In this document: positions 3,893-37,857 of the stretch, piece after piece | Numbering within the stretch: the stretch's first letter is position 1 | How the letters are laid out: each line of letters opens with the position of its first letter | DNA from: Escherichia phage fBC-Eco01 | Sequence record: OM272052.1 | Length of the DNA: 43,466 nt | Strand: one strand, 5' to 3' | The notes under the pieces: generated by a model | What the model was told of the DNA's origin: nothing | Databases searched by the model: none | What the model saw: the letters and a program-made list of their open reading frames with translations, nothing else | Position numbers and translations under genes: made by a program

Positions 3893-3919
3893 TTTGCGTC
3901 TCCTGTTTAAGTTAACTGA

Positions 3920-3948
3920 ATAGTACCCTATTATATTGGTGTCTGCAA
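3920..3948 (-). promoter_or_regulatory. conserved promoter element copy A (TTGCAG-N17-TACTAT, minus-directed)
   Basis: minus-strand reading TTGCAGACACCAATATAATAGGGTACTATTCAG; matches copies at 6064, 15132, 37795. Confidence 0.45.
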
Positions 3949-3992
3949 ATATTATTTTTATACGTTACACTGGCGGTACTATAGGAGGGCAT

Positions 3993-5036
3993 ATGAGCTT
4001 ACTTACATCTCTAATCAGTCACCAGATATGGCTGCAACGCGCCGCATCCGGTGAAGTGAAAGACCTTACGCCGTTTCTTCAGGAGATGCGGGACGAAATC
4101 AAACGGCAGGTGCTGTTATTCGGCGATGACGGGCGAAGCACCGCGCGACTGAATAAATTGTTACGTGACCTCGAAGAAGCACTAATGGGACTTACAGGCG
4201 ACTGGCAAACAAAGCTGACAGAAGACCTTAAGGAACTGGCGGCGTATGAGGCTGAGTGGAACGTAAAAACGCTGACCACCAACGTAAACGCGGAATTTGT
4301 TACACCTACCGCTGAGCAGGTATGGGCCGCCGCCGAGTTTCAACCGCTCTCATTAAGCGACAAGCCGGTTGATTTCACTAAGCTGATGTCGGGATGGGGT
4401 GAAACCGAAGTAGCACGTCTCGTAACCGGCGTTAAGATGGGCTTTGTGCAAGGTCAGACAACACGGCAGATTGTTAAGAATGTTGTTGGCGCTGGTGGGC
4501 TGGCGGACATATCCGAGCGTAACGCAGCTACGGTAATCCGCACCGCGCTGTCTCACGTATCCAACGAAGCCCGCAACGAGACGTACCGACAGAACGACGA
4601 CATCATCGAGAAGTACGAGTGGGTGTCAACGCTAGACAGCCGTACCAGTACGATTTGTAGGGCCAGAGACGGAATGACGTGGGAAATCGGTAAGGGGCCG
4701 ATGCCCCCGGCCCATTTTGGGTGCCGAAGTACCACGGCACCTGTAATCAGTTCAGAGTTCGACTTCCTCGATAAAGGTGCAAAACGTGCGGCTAAGGGCG
4801 CGGACGGAGGTACTCAGGTAAGCGCAGACACCACTTACTACGAGTTCCTGAAACAACAACCGGCGTGGTTCGTGGACGAAGCACTCGGGCCGACCCGCGG
4901 TAAGATTTTCCGCAACAGCGGTATATCGCCGGAAGAGTTTCGCGTAATATCTGTAGATGGTTTCGGGCGTCCGCTTACTATTAAAGAGATGGCGGAACTC
5001 GATAAACGTGTTGCTGATTATCTGAAAGGGGAATAA
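3993..5036 (+). CDS. head morphogenesis protein (phage Mu F / SPP1 gp7-like minor capsid protein)
   Basis: RBS AGGAGGG before ATG 3993; C-terminal motif TICRARDG...HFGCRS typical of the Mu F family. Confidence 0.8.
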   Translation: MSLLTSLISHQIWLQRAASGEVKDLTPFLQEMRDEIKRQVLLFGDDGRSTARLNKLLRDLEEALMGLTGDWQTKLTEDLKELAAYEAEWNVKTLTTNVNAEFVTPTAEQVWAAAEFQPLSLSDKPVDFTKLMSGWGETEVARLVTGVKMGFVQGQTTRQIVKNVVGAGGLADISERNAATVIRTALSHVSNEARNETYRQNDDIIEKYEWVSTLDSRTSTICRARDGMTWEIGKGPMPPAHFGCRSTTAPVISSEFDFLDKGAKRAAKGADGGTQVSADTTYYEFLKQQPAWFVDEALGPTRGKIFRNSGISPEEFRVISVDGFGRPLTIKEMAELDKRVADYLKGE

Positions 5037-5497
5037 TGATGGGCTTTTTCAAAGTAACCGATGTACCGTCGCGTCGCGTAGTCCAGTACGCCCGCGTGTC
5101 AGGCTCCGGCGAGAACGTGACCTACGTTGAAGATGAAAGTGTACTGGGTACACCTGTAGACGAGATGCCGTATGCAGATAAAACCGGTATTGCGCTACCG
5201 GCGGCGGGGATGCTTTACGAGATTCCGTATCTGGCAGACGCTGGTGACGTGTATTTCTCTGTGCAACCGAAAGACACCGAGCTGGTCGACGGTAGCGCCA
5301 CCATCACCGTCGAAGTTAAGGCAGGTAAAGCGCCGTATGTACTGACCTGGTACAAAGACGGGAAGGAAGTGGTGAACGCCCCGGAAGAGGCTCTGTCTCT
5401 GACTGTTAATGCGGCTGGTGAATACTTCGTTAAAGTTACTGATGCTGATGGGGTAGAGGCGGTAAGCAAGGCGGCGAAGGTTACTAAGCCAGAATGA
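5036..5497 (+). CDS. hypothetical protein, possible Ig-like capsid decoration protein
   Basis: 153 aa, start overlaps upstream stop; beta-rich C-terminal segment resembling Ig-like domains; followed by terminator. Confidence 0.5.
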   Translation: MMGFFKVTDVPSRRVVQYARVSGSGENVTYVEDESVLGTPVDEMPYADKTGIALPAAGMLYEIPYLADAGDVYFSVQPKDTELVDGSATITVEVKAGKAPYVLTWYKDGKEVVNAPEEALSLTVNAAGEYFVKVTDADGVEAVSKAAKVTKPE

Positions 5498-5501
5498 TAA
5501 A

Positions 5502-5528
5502 AGGCCCCGTTAAGGGGCTTTATTTTTA
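5502..5528 (+). terminator. intrinsic terminator
   Basis: GGCCCC-GTTAA-GGGGC hairpin followed by TTTATTTTTAT. Confidence 0.5.
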
Positions 5529-5593
5529 TATGAACATCGCGGTGATAACCGCAGCCGATACCCACAAAACAACATAAAACATCACACTATTTG

Positions 5594-5938
5594 TCATTTG
5601 CATTTCTCGTCGTATGTTTGTTGTAACTGCGACAGACGATTACCGGCTGTCATCTCGTCCATAGAAGGCCCAGCGCCTGTGTCCATAAAGAACAGCGGAA
5701 CAAACAGGAATGCGCCTGTAACACCGAGTACAACGTTAGTACCTATTTGCTTATTAACACGGTGCGTAGCGTTGGCTTGAGCTTGTTTTGTCGTGGCGAT
5801 TCTCGATAGTAACTGATTACATGTTGCCGTTGTATCCCCTGCCTGATAAACCTGTAAAGCTGGGTCTGGCAACGACCTTACGCAACCACTCAAACAAACG
5901 GCTACAACACCTGCTACTGCTAATTTAATATATTTCAT
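5594..5938 (-). CDS. putative lipoprotein (accessory)
   Basis: 114 aa; N-terminal signal with lipobox LSGC (MKYIKLAVAGVVAVCLSGC); hydrophobic segment near C-terminus; antisense to head genes. Confidence 0.6.
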   Translation of the reverse strand: MKYIKLAVAGVVAVCLSGCVRSLPDPALQVYQAGDTTATCNQLLSRIATTKQAQANATHRVNKQIGTNVVLGVTGAFLFVPLFFMDTGAGPSMDEMTAGNRLSQLQQTYDEKCK

Positions 5939-6036
5939 AGTTCGCCATTACCCGTGTCAATGTCACCAATACCACTACAAGCCCAAAGAAACATCACCGC
6001 ATCAACTGCAATTACTACTGAAATAACGACTAACAT
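5935..6036 (-). CDS. small hydrophobic peptide (33 aa), translationally coupled to lipoprotein
   Basis: ATG preceded by strong RBS GAGGAGG at 5 nt; stop TGA overlaps lipoprotein ATG (ATGA); sequence MLVVISVVIAVDAVMFLWACSG... Confidence 0.4.
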   Translation of the reverse strand: MLVVISVVIAVDAVMFLWACSGIGDIDTGNGEL

Positions 6037-6063
6037 GACGGCCTCCTCGGTTCGATAGAATGA

Positions 6064-6092
6064 ATAGTACCCTATTATATTGGGGTGCGCAA
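6064..6092 (-). promoter_or_regulatory. conserved promoter element copy B (TTGCGC-N17-TACTAT, minus-directed)
   Basis: minus-strand reading TTGCGCACCCCAATATAATAGGGTACTATTCA about 27 nt upstream of the small peptide ATG. Confidence 0.5.
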
Positions 6093-6134
6093 ACTATTTG
6101 TTTATGTATTCCAGTTATTCCACTCAATTGTAAA

Positions 6135-6163
6135 TGTTGGAATAAACTATTCGAATAGTTGAC
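6135..6163 (+). repeat. TGTTGGAATAA-N-TATTC-TTGAC motif copy 1 (candidate late promoter/activator site)
   Basis: TGTTGGAATAAACTATTCGAATAGTTGAC; a second copy at 6917-6940 precedes the scaffold gene. Confidence 0.3.
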
Positions 6164-6187
6164 TTTTCACCAAAAATGTGCTAAGCT
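6159..6187 (+). promoter_or_regulatory. candidate sigma70-type promoter (TTGACT-N17-TAAGCT)
   Basis: -35 TTGACT, 17-nt spacer, weak -10 TAAGCT; upstream of terminator-bounded leader and spanin genes. Confidence 0.3.
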
Positions 6188-6193
6188 CCACCT

Positions 6194-6394
6194 GAGCTTG
6201 TGAAGTATGAACAAGCGACCGCGGCGTGGCAGGTAACGGAGCCGGACGTTAAGTCCGAGTGTAGTTACGCTGACGCGTTCGGAAGGGCCATACTCTATTG
6301 CTTGTGTAAAAAGTAACTGGTTTACTGAGATTACGCCGTTTCTATGTTTAAATGATAAGGACTAGCGCCCCGCTTTAAGGCGGGGCTTTACTTA
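6194..6394 (+). ncRNA. candidate ~200-nt non-coding leader/sRNA ending in terminator
   Basis: no ORF longer than about 10 codons between the candidate promoter and the GCCCCGC-TTTAAG-GCGGGGC hairpin; followed by spanin RBS. Confidence 0.25.
6367..6394 (+). terminator. intrinsic terminator / attenuator upstream of spanins
   Basis: 7-bp GC-rich stem GCCCCGC/GCGGGGC followed by TTTACTTA. Confidence 0.5.
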
Positions 6395-6410
6395 TCGAGA
6401 AAGGGGAAAC

Positions 6411-6797
6411 ATGAATCTTAAAGCAACTGTCGTAGCCGGAGCATGTTTCGTCGTCCTAGCCTACGCACACGGCATCTATCAATACCGCAGCGGCTGGGGT
6501 GAAGGCCGTGCTAATCTCGTTTCGCAGCAACAGCAGAAAGCACAGGCTGAGCTGACGAAGAAAACACAACGGCAGCAGCAGGATGAATCAAAGGCCGCAA
6601 CCGCCGACAACGAAGGCAAGACGAAATCAGAGGTGATTACCCGTGAAGTCGTTAAGTACATTAAAACGCCTGGCCGCAGCGTGTGCACTTTCGATGATGC
6701 TCGCGTCCTGCTCAAGTCCCGCGCCGTCGCCAATGCCAATTCCATCCCCGGATACGACGATGATGCAGCCGCCGTGCAAACTGGCGCCACCAAGTAG
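6411..6797 (+). CDS. i-spanin (Rz-like)
   Basis: 128 aa; N-terminal transmembrane segment, Q/K/E-rich coiled-coil region, C-terminal Cys; contains embedded lipoprotein ORF in another frame. Confidence 0.55.
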   Translation: MNLKATVVAGACFVVLAYAHGIYQYRSGWGEGRANLVSQQQQKAQAELTKKTQRQQQDESKAATADNEGKTKSEVITREVVKYIKTPGRSVCTFDDARVLLKSRAVANANSIPGYDDDAAAVQTGATK

Positions 6798-6906
6798 CGA
6801 CGCCGATGGGGATTTAGCTATCGACGTTCAGAACGCCGAATGTGCACGGCAACTGAGACTGAAAGTGTTCATGTTGCAGGATTACGTGAGGAATATTCTG
6901 GAATAG
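6643..6906 (+). CDS. o-spanin (Rz1-like lipoprotein, overlapped with i-spanin)
   Basis: GTG start; signal peptide with lipobox LASC followed by Pro-rich region; starts inside and runs past the i-spanin ORF. Confidence 0.55.
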   Translation: MKSLSTLKRLAAACALSMMLASCSSPAPSPMPIPSPDTTMMQPPCKLAPPSSDADGDLAIDVQNAECARQLRLKVFMLQDYVRNILE

Positions 6907-6916
6907 TTGCCTTGCA

Positions 6917-6940
6917 TGTTGGAATAATTTATTCTTGACA
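6917..6940 (+). repeat. TGTTGGAATAA-N-TATTC-TTGAC motif copy 2
   Basis: TGTTGGAATAATTTATTCTTGACA upstream of scaffold gene. Confidence 0.3.
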
Positions 6941-6988
6941 TGTAAATCCGGGTGGCCCGGGTTCCAACGTCCAGGGGACATACTGACT

Positions 6989-7690
6989 ATGAATCGTTTT
7001 TTACGTTATCCGTTCCAGGAAGAAGCTGGGGCAGAAGATAAAGCTGGCGGCGGTGACGTGCCGAAAATGTTCACCGCTGAAGAAGTTCAGGCGCTGATTG
7101 AGAAAGAAGTTGCCGGGCTTAAGGCCAATCAGGAAGCATTGCTGGCGGAGAAGAAAGAAGCCGCTCGCAAAGCAAAAGAGGCCGAAGAAGAACGGCAGCG
7201 TGCACACCAGGAGGCGTTAAAAGCCGCTGGTAAGATGGACGAGTTCGAAAAAACGATTCGTAGCCAGTATGACCCGGTGTTAGCCGAGAAAGATGGTCGC
7301 ATCTCCAGAATGGCAGAGCGCATCCTCGGCAGCGAACGTAAAGCAGTGTTAGGCTCTTTCGCAGGTGACTTCATCACCCCGGAAGCAGTAGACATCCTTG
7401 CGCCGTTCGTTAAGACTGAGTTCGAAGGCGATGACGTGGTTACTAAGTTTGTTGGTGCAGACGGCAACGTAATCACAACTGACCCGGAACAGTTCCGCAA
7501 GTACCTGCGCGAACACAAAGCGTTTTCGCATTTGATTAAAGCAAATGCAGCTTCCGGCGGCGGGGCTTCCGGTGGCAAAGGCGGCGGGGCCGCACCAGCG
7601 TTTAAAGACATGAGTGAAGCGGAGCGTTTAGCTCTGTATAAATCGAACCCTGCCGAATTTGAACGGCAACTTAAAGCCCTGAGGAAATAA
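6989..7690 (+). CDS. scaffolding protein (putative)
   Basis: ATG 6989 chosen in the 6935..7690 frame; charged, alanine- and lysine-rich coiled-coil composition; immediately upstream of major capsid gene. Confidence 0.55.
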   Translation: MNRFLRYPFQEEAGAEDKAGGGDVPKMFTAEEVQALIEKEVAGLKANQEALLAEKKEAARKAKEAEEERQRAHQEALKAAGKMDEFEKTIRSQYDPVLAEKDGRISRMAERILGSERKAVLGSFAGDFITPEAVDILAPFVKTEFEGDDVVTKFVGADGNVITTDPEQFRKYLREHKAFSHLIKANAASGGGASGGKGGGAAPAFKDMSEAERLALYKSNPAEFERQLKALRK

Positions 7691-7692
7691 TA

Positions 7693-8742
7693 ATGGCAAT
7701 TACCACTATCGGCGATATCGTAACTGGCAACATCCCGGTCCTGGCGTCTTATATGACCGAGGACCCGGTAGAGAAAACCGCGTTCTTCCAGTCCGGTATT
7801 CTGACCCCGACTCCGTACGCCGCAGAGATTGCTCGCGGCCCATCCAACGTCGCCAACATTCCTTTCTGGAAAGCGATTGATACCTCTATCGAGCCTAATT
7901 ACTCGAACGATGTGTATCAGGACATCGCTACCCCGCGTAACGTCCAAACCGGCGAAATGATGGCCCGTGTTGCCTACCTGAACGAAGGTTTTGGTCAGGC
8001 GGATTTGACTGTTGAACTGACCAGCCAGAATCCGCTGCAATCAGTGGCTTCTCGTCTTGATAACTTCTGGCAGCGTCAGGCGCAACGCCGTCTGATTGCT
8101 ACCGCTCTCGGTCTGTACAACGACAACGTAACTGCTACCGATGCTTACCATACGCAGAACGACATGGTTATCGACGTGTCTGCTACTCTAGGCTTCGACG
8201 CAGGTGCGTTCATCGACGCCACCCAGACTATGGGCGATGCTCTGATGGGCAACGGTGGTGAAGTGCTGGGCGCTATCGCGATGCACAGCTTCGTTTATGC
8301 GCAGGCGCGTAAGCAGCAGCTTATCGACTTTATCAAAGATGCTGACAACGACACCTTGTTCGCCACCTACCAGGGATACCGCGTGATTGTTGACGACAGC
8401 ATGACCGTAGTCGGTACTGGTAGTGACCGTAAGTTCATCTCTATCATCTTCGGCAACGGTGCTATCGGTTATGGTGAAGGCAACCCGTCCAACCCGCTGG
8501 AATATGAACGCGAAGCGTCTCGCGGTAACGGTGGTGGCGTTGAAACCCTGTGGTCCCGTAAGACCTGGTTGCTGCACCCGCTGGGCTACAGCTTCACCAG
8601 CGCAGTAATCACCGGTAACGGCACCGAGACTATCGCCCGCTCTGCTTCCTGGCAGGACCTGGCGAACGCCTCCAACTGGAACCGTGTTGTTGACCGTAAG
8701 CATGTACCTATTGCCTTCCTGGTAACTGGCGTCGGTGCTTAA
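7693..8742 (+). CDS. major capsid protein
   Basis: 349 aa ORF following scaffold, tight spacing (TAATAATG), followed by strong terminator; size and position typical. Confidence 0.8.
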   Translation: MAITTIGDIVTGNIPVLASYMTEDPVEKTAFFQSGILTPTPYAAEIARGPSNVANIPFWKAIDTSIEPNYSNDVYQDIATPRNVQTGEMMARVAYLNEGFGQADLTVELTSQNPLQSVASRLDNFWQRQAQRRLIATALGLYNDNVTATDAYHTQNDMVIDVSATLGFDAGAFIDATQTMGDALMGNGGEVLGAIAMHSFVYAQARKQQLIDFIKDADNDTLFATYQGYRVIVDDSMTVVGTGSDRKFISIIFGNGAIGYGEGNPSNPLEYEREASRGNGGGVETLWSRKTWLLHPLGYSFTSAVITGNGTETIARSASWQDLANASNWNRVVDRKHVPIAFLVTGVGA

Positions 8743-8759
8743 GGTTAAGATATAATCGA

Positions 8760-8786
8760 GAGGGACTTCGGTCCCTCTTTTCATTT
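8760..8786 (+). terminator. intrinsic terminator after capsid gene
   Basis: GAGGGAC-TTCG-GTCCCTC hairpin followed by TTTTCATTT. Confidence 0.6.
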
Positions 8787-8801
8787 ACTAAGAGGTAAAT
8801 T

Positions 8802-9101
8802 ATGGCCAATACCGGAAAAGGCTTGCCGCGCAGCCTTCAGAATGTCGACTTCGGCGACTTTGATATCCCAGTAACGCCGGCTACTACCAGCGTAGTTGGT
8901 GGGGTTAAAAAGTCAGCTACTGTAGCCGCGCCTGCGGCCATTACCGCTGGTGCGAGGGTGCAGTCCGCCGCGGCTCCAACTAAGCCAGAGTTCGACGCCC
9001 TTGTAGCGGAGTACAACAAACTCCGAACTGATGTTACCGCGCTGCGCACTACCGTAGCAGATCTGTTGACTGCGCTTAAAAACGCAGGGACCGTAAGCTA
9101 A
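8802..9101 (+). CDS. hypothetical structural protein
   Basis: 99 aa, RBS AAGAGG upstream; Ala/Thr-rich; located in head gene block. Confidence 0.55.
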   Translation: MANTGKGLPRSLQNVDFGDFDIPVTPATTSVVGGVKKSATVAAPAAITAGARVQSAAAPTKPEFDALVAEYNKLRTDVTALRTTVADLLTALKNAGTVS

Positions 9102-13122: not shown

Positions 13123-13147
13123 AAGGCCCCGAAAGGGGCCTTTTTCT
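13123..13147. terminator. bidirectional intrinsic terminator
   Basis: AGGCCCC-GAAA-GGGGCCT hairpin with A-run upstream and T-run downstream; ends both the + tail transcript and the - accessory operon. Confidence 0.6.
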
Positions 13148-15090: not shown

Positions 15091-15131
15091 GGTGTAGCTC
15101 CTGTTTGAGTTAACATTGTTGGTGTAAGTGA

Positions 15132-15160
15132 ATAGTATCCTATTATGTTGGGGTGCGCAA
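15132..15160 (-). promoter_or_regulatory. conserved promoter element copy C (TTGCGC-N17-TACTAT, minus-directed)
   Basis: minus-strand reading TTGCGCACCCCAACATAATAGGATACTATTCAC, 28 nt identical to copy D. Confidence 0.5.
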
Positions 15161-37472: not shown

Positions 37473-37502
37473 TTGAAAGTTCTTGACACATGTTTGTATA
37501 AT
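37473..37502 (+). promoter_or_regulatory. strong sigma70-like promoter (TTGAAA-N18-TATAAT)
   Basis: perfect -10 TATAAT, good -35; no ORF downstream before terminator at 37702. Confidence 0.5.
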
Positions 37503-37508
37503 GGTTTT

Positions 37509-37729
37509 GGGACTTGTATATATTACGGAGTTGACGAACCCTCCCCGAGGGATTCGTCAACCCCTCCCAGACAACTGAGATGCTTGCCTTGGGGTTTAAG
37601 GATAAGTGTATCTAAATCTCATTTAAAGAAGTAACCCGCTGAAATATCTACTGTTTCTTAATGTGCCGTAGATTCGCAACCGTAAAAATGTAACGATTAT
37701 TGGGCAGGCTTAAGGCCTGCCCTTTAGTT
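37509..37729 (+). ncRNA. candidate ~220-nt non-coding RNA
   Basis: bounded by TTGAAA-N18-TATAAT promoter and GGGCAGGC-TTAAG-GCCTGCCC terminator; 5' region holds a 14/15-bp hairpin; no RBS-led ORF. Confidence 0.3.
37702..37729 (+). terminator. intrinsic terminator
   Basis: 8-bp GC-rich stem GGGCAGGC/GCCTGCCC followed by TTTAGTT. Confidence 0.55.
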
Positions 37730-37794
37730 ACCAAGTAATAAGAATAAAGGCACAACCTTCCCTAAAGAATCACAACGGCAACGTAACTAATCTC

Positions 37795-37823
37795 TTGCAC
37801 ACCCCAACATAATAGGATACTAT
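37795..37823 (+). promoter_or_regulatory. conserved promoter element copy D (TTGCAC-N17-TACTAT, plus-directed)
   Basis: TTGCACACCCCAACATAATAGGATACTATTCAC upstream of the rightward small-gene cluster. Confidence 0.5.
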
Positions 37824-37857
37824 TCACGTATCGGGACGAGACAGAGGAGTGAGGGTT

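Follow-up and report, generated by a model that had tools for sequence, protein, structure and literature searches.

A conserved, structured leader RNA between a promoter-like element and the spanin genes of Kagunavirus-type phages

The window analysed here is the whole 43,466-bp stretch of DNA; it is the complete genome, in circularly permuted form, of a Kagunavirus-type siphophage of the subfamily Guernseyvirinae. Its ends are spanned by an alignment to one related IMG/VR contig, and its positions 5900-7000 share 96% identity with Escherichia phage SZH-1. In this report, we consider the leader that precedes the spanin genes. The features that surround it are given below, with gene identities drawn from PHROGs scans:

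5036-5497: Hoc-like head decoration gene
5594-6036, minus strand: two small genes
6400-6413, plus strand: Shine-Dalgarno sequence AAAGGGG and the i-spanin ATG (6411)
6411-6797, plus strand: i-spanin gene (Rz-like spanin), starting at the ATG at 6411
6643-6906: o-spanin gene (Rz-like spanin), overlapping the i-spanin gene
6989-7690: scaffold gene
7693-8742: major capsid gene

The two spanin genes match phrog_2536 (E 1.2e-54) and phrog_5672 (E 8.6e-29), both of which are Rz-like spanins. A strong terminator (8758-8779) lies directly 3' of the capsid gene and leaves no space in which a further promoter could precede the next gene; the spanin-capsid operon is about 7 kb long. The lysis genes are split in the window, such that only the spanins sit behind the leader that is predicted to begin near 6194. 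The replication module is T7-like, comprising a DNA polymerase, a helicase-primase and a gp2.5-like single-strand-binding protein, all recognised by PHROGs. The scaffold gene, too, has a conserved hairpin in its 5'-UTR.

An earlier note on this DNA had proposed a promoter at 6159-6187, and a promoter-like element is indeed present there:

6159-6187, plus strand: promoter-like element, in full
6159-6164: -35 hexamer TTGACT, followed by a 17-nt spacer
6179-6180: extended -10 dinucleotide TG
6182-6187: -10 hexamer TAAGCT

The element occurs once in the window. Its -35 hexamer agrees with the consensus at five of six positions. The -10 hexamer fits TATAAT at three of six only, and for this reason the element fell below the threshold of a generic sigma-70 scan and is missing from the list that the scan produced. 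The candidate is conserved nonetheless: the unit composed of the -35 hexamer, 17 nt and TGnTA[A/C]GCT is kept in all sequence classes that we recovered, and the same unit recurs at a second, unlinked locus of other Kagunaviruses. Transcription is predicted to start near G6194. In every class, the structured RNA described below begins only a few nucleotides from the predicted start; thus, promoter and RNA move as a single unit.

The leader had previously been regarded as a segment of about 200 untranslated nucleotides with a terminator. That description overlooked its 5' 115 nt, which constitute a covarying structured RNA (hereafter, the core). Its parts, all on the plus strand, are as follows:

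6194-6309: structured RNA core, about 115 nt in four parts, defined with a covariance model
6196-6201 with 6211-6216: P0, the 5' hairpin
6219-6221 and 6223-6228 with 6274-6282: P1
6230-6237 with 6264-6272: P2
6243-6247 with 6253-6257: P3
6238-6242 and 6258-6263: the two strands of the internal loop between P2 and P3
6283-6300: conserved 3' tail, AAGGGCCAUACUCUAUUG

P1, P2 and P3 together make up one long irregular hairpin, and P0 stands separately at the 5' end, its extreme 5' position being common to all classes. When single sequences from each class are folded, P0 is followed by one or two unpaired bases and then by the long hairpin, in which P1 takes the form CCG-c-GGNGCG paired with CGCN'UUCGG. 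The minimum-energy fold of the core has a free energy of -39.9 kcal/mol and accounts for 34% of the ensemble on the plus strand, versus -29.7 on the other strand. Further, two P1 pairs are invariably G-U, which ties the fold to the plus-strand RNA. The loop of P3 varies among sequences (GUAA, GUUAA, UUUA, AUUA, CUCG and UCACAA). Among 39 unique leaders from close relatives, the strands of the internal loop are invariant; variation is seen in the helices and in the 3' spacer. Such a combination of varying helices and invariant internal loops commonly marks a specific binding surface, and it may do so here.

The initial covariance model was built from six near-identical sequences and a given structure, and it found all of the classes, with 63 matches in total. 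The window scores 126.5 bits with model R1 and 120.2 bits with model R2; in pattern searches and covariance-model searches run with filters off, the window held no copy of the core other than that at 6194-6309. Standard pairs occupy 97.7% of the pair cells, as opposed to 31-39% in a control in which the 3' partners were slid by 1-3 columns; 16 of 29 pairs have changed on both sides (mean in shuffles, 10.3), and none of 500 shuffles reached the observed score. The alignment behind these counts was fitted to the model, and the counts therefore lean towards the structure. Three other results are independent of that alignment or of the structure supplied to the model. RNAalifold, applied to the model alignment, recovered the same four helices, with compensatory changes at 13 of 25 pairs. 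A plain MAFFT alignment exhibits three pair types (U-A, C-G and A-U) at one P1 pair, and the single-sequence fold of each class gives the same architecture. Substitutions in the core track base pairing, not codon positions. This pattern of change indicates that the structure of the core is under selection.

Searches for known families and for copies outside these phages returned little. At gathering thresholds, Rfam 15 had no match anywhere in the window, and a search of 5900-7100 that admitted E-values up to 10 yielded best scores of 11-18 bits against thresholds of 35-100, which is noise. A tRNA/tmRNA search found nothing. By inspection, neither the K-turn consensus for the internal loop nor that of the RfaH ops site for the sequence could be fitted. 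The core was not found in 5,426 complete E. coli genomes, and only two short, contaminant-like contigs among 185,579 species-representative genomes pass the model. In metagenomes, 39 matches in 38 loci pass; most are on contigs of about 44 kb, which is the size of these phages, and the rest are on shorter fragments. We found no published description of the element in the literature, and a temporal transcriptome of a Kagunavirus, being resolved only to the gene level, is silent on intergenic RNAs (PMC12645636).

Within the two genera, the core is widespread: about 450 sequenced Kagunavirus and Jerseyvirus records carry it, in leaders of two sequence types. A 296-nt query (6120-6415) matched 180 phage records, most of them at 95-99% identity and many from Salmonella Jerseyviruses. 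A second, divergent version of the leader (the S type) occupies the same place in SETP3-like Jerseyviruses (269 records). When the two types are aligned, the promoter is conserved and the segments ACCGCGG and TTCGGAAGGG are unchanging; the sequence between them differs, yet it pairs alike. A scan of IMG/VR for ACCGCGGNG...CNTTCGGAAGGG produced 58 loci, which comprise five core classes and four chance matches in high-GC contigs; a looser pattern based on the tail alone revealed no further class. A comparison with Salmonella phage LSPA1 brings out a feature that the earlier note missed, namely that the noncoding block (94-98%) outdoes the neighbouring genes (72-84%) in identity. The individual values are 91.5% for the promoter region, 94% for the RNA core, 98% for the 3' leader, 72-82% for the spanin genes, 84% for the scaffold gene and 83% for the capsid gene. 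The very high conservation of the leader could stem partly from recent exchange of this cassette between the genera, and not from selection alone. Models R1 and R2 detected nothing in the leaders of Serratia phage Otaku, Klebsiella phage VLCpiS11a and Cornellvirus SP-031. By eye, the spanin leaders of these three phages share fragments such as ACCGC...CAUUCGGAAAG; homology is not established.

Between the core and the spanin genes lie a spacer and a hairpin (plus strand):

6310-6353: variable 3' spacer; weak hairpin AGUAA/UUACU and AGAUUNCGCCGU, common to both leader types
6354-6396: two-tier hairpin
6354-6359 with 6391-6396: its lower stem, GAUAAG with CUUAUC
6367-6373 with 6380-6386: its upper GC stem, with the loop UUUAAG
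6387-6390: UUUA, in its internal loop

No part of the leader varies more than the spacer (13 of its 44 columns differ among close relatives). The hairpin at 6367-6386, with eight pairs of which seven are G-C, is followed by TTTACTTATC and is the top-ranked terminator-like site in 4000-9000. A GC-rich terminator had been placed at 6367-6394, just before the spanin ribosome-binding site. The hairpin is there, and the location is as described: the ribosome-binding site, which has no promoter of its own, starts 4 nt 3' of it. The stem is also conserved in relatives, with 99.2% of the cells of the upper stem paired and two of its seven pairs changed on both sides (C-G to G-C or U-A; G-C to A-U). 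Judged by these compensatory changes, the downstream hairpin is certainly under selection. The terminator assignment fares less well in that the U-rich tract is confined to the Kagunavirus-type leader; the Jerseyvirus (S) type has CUUAGCGUAU instead. In both types the tract (UUUA or UUAG) falls within the internal loop of the longer, two-tier hairpin, whose lower stem in the S type, as read by eye, is AUACG/CGUAU in place of GAUAAG/CUUAUC. The Kagunavirus version, a stem followed by UUUACUUAUC, plausibly reads as an intrinsic terminator, and the window's leader type is the sole one for which efficient termination seems plausible.

Many Kagunaviruses have two copies of the core in the same orientation, separated by about 11.6 kb, of which the second is upstream of the spanin copy. 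This second copy is located behind a near-identical promoter, TTGACTTTTACTTAAAAATATGCTAAGCT, divergent from a gene for an AlpA-like HTH protein, and it opens a leader of about 330 nt without a canonical terminator. By synteny with the window, the second leader heads the other long rightward unit, which contains small ORFs, two holins, the endolysin, the terminase and the portal. One of the core classes, type E, occupies the spanin locus of one genome and the second locus of several others. The core thus appears to be interchangeable and to work independently of its context. A GC-rich hairpin is found 3' of the core at both loci, that of the second locus having no U tract. In the window, the corresponding locus (37509-37735) has a different, highly structured leader with a similar hairpin followed by UUUAGUUACC, and the core would therefore seem dispensable there.

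Repeated half-sites flank the promoter on its 5' side and recur in front of the scaffold gene:

6107-6158, no strand assigned: GGAATA/TATTCC half-site array of direct and inverted repeats, 5' of the promoter
6108-6123: TATTCCAGTTATTCCA, within this array
6138-6145: TGGAATAA, within this array
6147-6158: palindrome CTATTCGAATAG, within this array and abutting the -35 hexamer
6890-6935, plus strand: second GGAATA half-site cluster, before the scaffold gene, with GGAATATTCTGGAATAG, TTGCCT (6907-6912), 17 nt that include TGGAATAATT, and TATTCT (6930-6935)

The motif TGTTGGAATAANNTATTC has exactly two sites in 43 kb, at 6135 and 6917 (a third listed match is the reverse strand of the first), where 0.37 would be expected by chance with up to three mismatches. 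The octamer TGGAATAA occurs three times in the window, in each case inside the intergenic stretches around 6135 and 6917. A motif ending in TATTC and TTGAC had been reported to recur before the scaffold gene and had been taken to suggest a shared late-regulatory site. The GGAATA/TATTC half-sites do recur, and in relatives the arrays are conserved at both places in Kagunavirus, Jerseyvirus and Cornellvirus leaders. The TTGAC portion is not conserved at the scaffold site, where Jerseyviruses have TTGTTA at the position of the window's TTGAC. A shared site is thus a reasonable proposal, with the half-sites, not TTGAC, as its conserved part. The upstream array presumably binds a regulator. The cluster at 6890-6935 may be a separate weak promoter, TTGCCT-17-TATTCT, which agrees with the consensus at 8 of 12 positions and falls under the threshold of the sigma-70 scan.

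How might these elements work together? The core most probably has its effect on the polymerase that transcribes it or on the transcript that contains it. We tentatively propose, with a probability of about 0.4, that the product of this interval is a leader RNA that acts in cis, close to its promoter, and changes elongation or termination. The host sigma-70 polymerase would probably initiate near 6194 and would first transcribe the two-hairpin RNA (P0 and P1-P2-P3) with its invariant internal loops and its conserved single-stranded tail. Either unaided or together with a factor from the host or the phage, this RNA would then act on the very elongation complex that had produced it. Thus modified, the polymerase would read through the hairpin/terminator at 6354-6396 and would also pass later terminators of the 7-kb operon, such as that at 8758-8779 after the capsid gene. 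The logic would be that of HK022 put or lambda nut. We infer the initiation of transcription, termination at the hairpin and the effect of the RNA on read-through.

Four features make a cis-acting leader RNA the best fit: the conserved structure, its tie to the promoter, its position at the heads of the two long rightward operons, and the conserved hairpin downstream. Because a GC hairpin follows the core at both loci and a strong terminator follows the capsid gene, there would be downstream elements that need to be read through. The proteins of the phage are also pertinent. PHROGs scans of 40 ORFs recognised a helicase, a polymerase, nucleases, holins, an endolysin and one HTH protein, but no Q-like or other antiterminator family, and many small ORFs are without known function. 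A search of the window's ORFs for N-like, arginine-rich proteins returned the small terminase subunit and otherwise only ORFs that were out of frame. The lack of a leader ORF and of a recognised N-like or Q-like protein fits an RNA that acts by itself or through host factors. With no N-like or Q-like gene recognised, the lambda PR'/Q arrangement is no more than an analogy. Hence, of the late-gene antitermination layout suggested in the earlier note, the order of promoter, leader, hairpin and spanin genes is conserved and a read-through leader is the best-supported reading, while a Q-like or N-like gene to complete the parallel was not recognised. Some findings weigh against a leader of this kind. 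The -10 hexamer is weak (three of six positions), models R1 and R2 show no similarity to the put region of HK022, the leaders of Otaku, VLCpiS11a and SP-031 differ in sequence and escape the models, and the window itself does without the core at its second locus. Further, since the U tract is absent from the Jerseyvirus type and from the second locus, an immediate need for antitermination is not demonstrated.

An unlikely, though credible, alternative is that the product is a terminated, trans-acting sRNA of about 200 nt (6194 to about 6392), made from a strong promoter, stabilised by its 5' and 3' hairpins and serving elsewhere as a regulator, a decoy or an anti-defence molecule; read-through into the spanins would then be a leak. 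The gene layout is classic for an sRNA: a promoter, a structured RNA and a GC hairpin with UUUACUUAU. A conserved structure with invariant loops would suit a protein-binding decoy, and a second copy under the same promoter, as found in some genomes, would raise the dose. StxS, a small RNA from the terminated leader of a late promoter, is a precedent (PMC7547250). However, the spanin ribosome-binding site, 4 nt past the hairpin and lacking its own promoter, requires read-through, and the U tract is missing from Jerseyvirus-type leaders. The spacer between the core and the hairpin is the least constrained part of the leader, and an extended single-stranded seed region is not evident. The earlier note had offered an independent sRNA as its other option; this option is weakened by the second locus, where the core is the 5' end of the leader of about 330 nt without a canonical terminator.

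Another possibility, which we consider quite improbable, is that the leader governs the stability, processing or translation of the mRNA, with the 5' hairpins blocking 5'-end-dependent decay and the two-tier hairpin serving as an RNase III-type site or a stabiliser. The placement of P0 at the extreme 5' end in all classes accords with this idea. So does the build of the downstream hairpin (lower stem, internal loop, upper stem), the lower stem being swapped for another pairing sequence in the S type, and so does the conserved 5'-UTR hairpin of the nearby scaffold gene. Yet a simple stabiliser would need neither invariant internal loops nor a conserved tail of about 20 nt, and generic 5' hairpins do not normally constitute one family at two loci and across genera.

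More doubtful still is a riboswitch or protein-dependent attenuator, in which the core would sense a metabolite, an ion, a signal or a protein and its bound state would decide termination at the hairpin, thereby gating the spanin and late genes. The order of elements is canonical for such a device (promoter, aptamer-like RNA, terminator-like hairpin, ribosome-binding site), the internal loops, being invariant, might make up a binding pocket for a ligand, and both loci are upstream of lysis genes (the spanins at one, the holin and endolysin operon at the other). Nevertheless, the core is a self-contained, closed hairpin separated from the terminator by about 70 variable nucleotides, the terminator tract is not conserved across the types, and there is no match to a riboswitch in Rfam. 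Nor is there a mutually exclusive pairing between core and terminator that is conserved between leader types or loci. One candidate, the anti-P1 pairing CGGCGU/ACGCCG seen in the minimum-energy fold, was rejected; it is lost at the second locus, the pairing there being between UUGCCGU and an ACGGCAA downstream.

Two bolder conjectures are, taken together, a long shot: that the core is a sensor, either of a ligand or of a signal of host or defence origin, and gates lysis and the late genes, or that it belongs beside put as an unrelated second family of RNAs that modify the polymerase without a protein. Very improbable is a function at the level of DNA or priming, namely an origin with iteron-like GGAATA repeats and a priming transcript, in the manner of ColE1 RNA II or the T7 origin promoters. 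The direct and inverted repeats 5' of the promoter, the T7-like replication module and the G-rich tail of the RNA would be in keeping with an origin. However, GC skew shows no signal at 6 kb; its switches are at about 37 kb and about 25 kb, both of them points at which transcription changes direction; the second RNA locus is devoid of GGAATA repeats and the second GGAATA cluster (6890-6935) of an RNA core; and the G-U pairs argue for a function in the RNA of one strand.

A small protein gene, finally, is effectively refuted: the window does hold a 38-aa ORF with a GTG start (6200-6316), but of 38 unique close relatives only 3 keep it whole, its frame being broken by 1-nt indels in the other 35 (in 32 of the 38 they shorten it to 19 aa), no Shine-Dalgarno sequence precedes it, and substitutions follow the pairing. 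The statement that these 200 nt or so lack a credible ORF was thus accurate. Some GenBank records annotate a hypothetical protein here, as with the 36-aa CDS of phage Snoke, which is dismissed on the same grounds. Such annotations inside the core are probably wrong, and the present finding corrects the records that contain them.

Among candidates for phage therapy directed at E. coli and Salmonella, Kagunavirus and Jerseyvirus phages are some of the most often isolated. To our knowledge, no mode of control of their late or lysis genes has been described. Were the core to modify the polymerase, just one phage RNA family known to do so, HK022 put, would precede it, and none from virulent phages. 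Should it instead be an sRNA or a sensor, it would represent a new phage-host regulator; if the sensor reading is true, a virulent phage would possess an RNA-based switch for the timing of lysis and late expression.

Several known systems resemble this leader in part. Like terminating riboswitches and the EAR element of Bacillus eps operons, it combines a structured 5' leader and a terminator hairpin with the first gene of a long operon. Unlike them, it matches nothing in Rfam, has a gap of about 70 poorly conserved nucleotides between core and terminator, and shows no conserved exclusive pairing. The lambda PR'-6S-tR' region and StxS offer a second parallel: a constitutive-looking promoter, a leader of about 200 nt and a terminator upstream of lysis and late structural genes. 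The differences are that no Q gene is recognised here, that Q is loaded by way of a DNA site and a pause that depends on sigma rather than by RNA structure, and that the lysis genes of our phage are split, with the spanins alone behind the leader. For the lambda 6S leader, no covarying structured family is known. StxS itself is a small RNA derived from the equivalent leader of Stx phages (PMC7547250).

The nut sites of lambda and P22 are likewise RNA elements in two operon leaders of one phage, upstream of terminators. The two positions of the core, each heading an operon, parallel those of putL and putR or of nutL and nutR (PMC9378689). A nut site consists of a 15-nt boxB hairpin and boxA, whereas the core has several helices in about 90 nt, the loop of its P3 is not conserved, and no in-frame arginine-rich ORF was found. 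Its tail, CUCUAUUG, resembles boxA (GCUCUUUA) only loosely.

The put RNAs of HK022, putL and putR, act in cis; they bind the zinc-binding domain of the RNA polymerase beta' subunit and suppress pausing and termination without any protein (PMC9378689). The core shares with them a promoter-proximal location and, as in putL, a 5' end that coincides with the predicted start of transcription or falls a few nucleotides from it. Both consist of two irregular stem-loops with bulges and non-canonical regions (about 73 nt in put, about 90-100 nt in the core), both are encountered by an enterobacterial sigma-70 host polymerase with terminator-like hairpins downstream, and in both cases related copies head two operons of one genome, which for the core holds in other Kagunaviruses. 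The likeness is one of architecture, not of homology. Over the PL-nun-cI-PR region of HK022, models R1 and R2 returned only noise (E at least 2.4) and nothing at putL, in which there is no alignable motif. The put phages are lambdoid and temperate, whereas those that carry the core are virulent Guernseyvirinae; further, the first stem of the core is a short, simple hairpin, and a triple helix is not evident. Given the lack of similarity to the models and of a recognised N-like or Q-like gene, the core is not a member of the put or nut family. It represents a new RNA family whose general kind, the promoter-proximal regulatory leader of a phage, is already known.

At 37473-37760, the window carries a different cassette where other Kagunaviruses hold the second copy of the RNA core. 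This cassette has its own promoter (TTGAAA-18-TATAAT) and a leader with a very good predicted fold (z = -4.2), including a long 5' hairpin (GUUGACGAACCCUC...GAGGGAUUCGUCAAC). The leader ends in a terminator-like hairpin (37702-37722) followed by TTTAGTTACC, and these elements give way to the 3' leader that is common to the other Kagunaviruses. Leader cassettes thus appear to be exchanged as modules. Further, an E-type core, in which GGUGC-GUYA-GCACU forms P3 and P2 contains GUGUC, occupies the spanin locus of one genome and, in other genomes, the second locus (record L026 versus records L060 and L067; IMG/VR contigs). The occurrence of the same variant at either locus in different genomes implies that cores are also exchanged between the two sites. 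We also note that the second-locus leaders of records L028 and L012 contain a long-range complement, UUGCCGU...ACGGCAA, with its halves about 100 nt apart.

The minus-strand insert that separates the leader from the Hoc-like gene (window 5594-6036, compared with L001 2455-2976 of phage Snoke and with L003 939-1478) differs among close relatives. At this position, a sliding clamp is annotated in Snoke, and LSPA1 encodes an endonuclease VII; in SETP3 and Jersey the position is empty. The products of the insert in the window (together 5594-6036, minus strand) are:
114-aa lipoprotein-like protein (phrog_13472)
33-aa hydrophobic peptide

A 17-nt near-palindrome, GAATAGTAnCCTATTAT, has 11 matches in the window against 0.3 expected, with site 27124 counted twice, once per strand:
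3918-3934, plus strand, exact copy
6062-6078, plus strand, exact copy
15130-15146, plus strand, exact copy
37809-37825, minus strand, copy
27124, 31345, 34181, 34225, 38975 and 41748, weaker copies

All three exact plus-strand copies directly follow an insertion of minus-strand genes that breaks up the rightward structural genes. The one at 6062 is 80 nt upstream of the promoter of the spanin leader, and relatives that lack the minus-strand genes also lack this copy. Several of the weaker copies overlap predicted TTGACA-17-TATAGT promoters. The consensus of the near-palindrome is also given, for PHIRE “phage promoters”, in a paper on Kagunavirus fBC-Eco01 (PMC9825357).

The rightward units are bounded by bidirectional terminators, and a further terminator, after the major capsid gene, lies only about 20 nt upstream of the gene that comes next:
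5501-5521, bidirectional terminator, about 5.5 kb
13123-13142, bidirectional terminator, about 13.1 kb
8758-8779, strong intrinsic terminator directly 3' of the major capsid gene

The 5' UTR of the scaffold gene (6942-6991) contains a hairpin, CCGGGUGGCCCGG (6948-6960), followed by GUCCAGGGGACAUAYUGACUAUG. This hairpin, a candidate stabiliser or translational operator, is kept throughout the subfamily, even in two phages that lack the GGAATA motifs, Serratia phage Otaku and Klebsiella phage VLCpiS11a.

At no more than 366 aa, the homologue of the Snoke head-morphogenesis gene in the window (3936-5036) is short; it lacks an insertion like the annotated 273-residue intein of the Snoke gene (L001 106-1965).

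Only two matches in the bacterial genome collection pass the RNA model, both short contigs with Guernseyvirinae leader sequence. They probably represent phage contamination or mis-binning in their assemblies:
L080, 6.2-kb contig, Bacillota MAG
L092, 738-bp scaffold, Taishania pollutisoli assembly

The spanin leaders of distant Guernseyvirinae have CAACGGCAGCAAU in common, just before the ribosome-binding site (L007 1895-1915; L009 1580-1600; L008 1688-1725). GAACGGCAAUG is present in putL of HK022 (L165, about 4255, minus strand).
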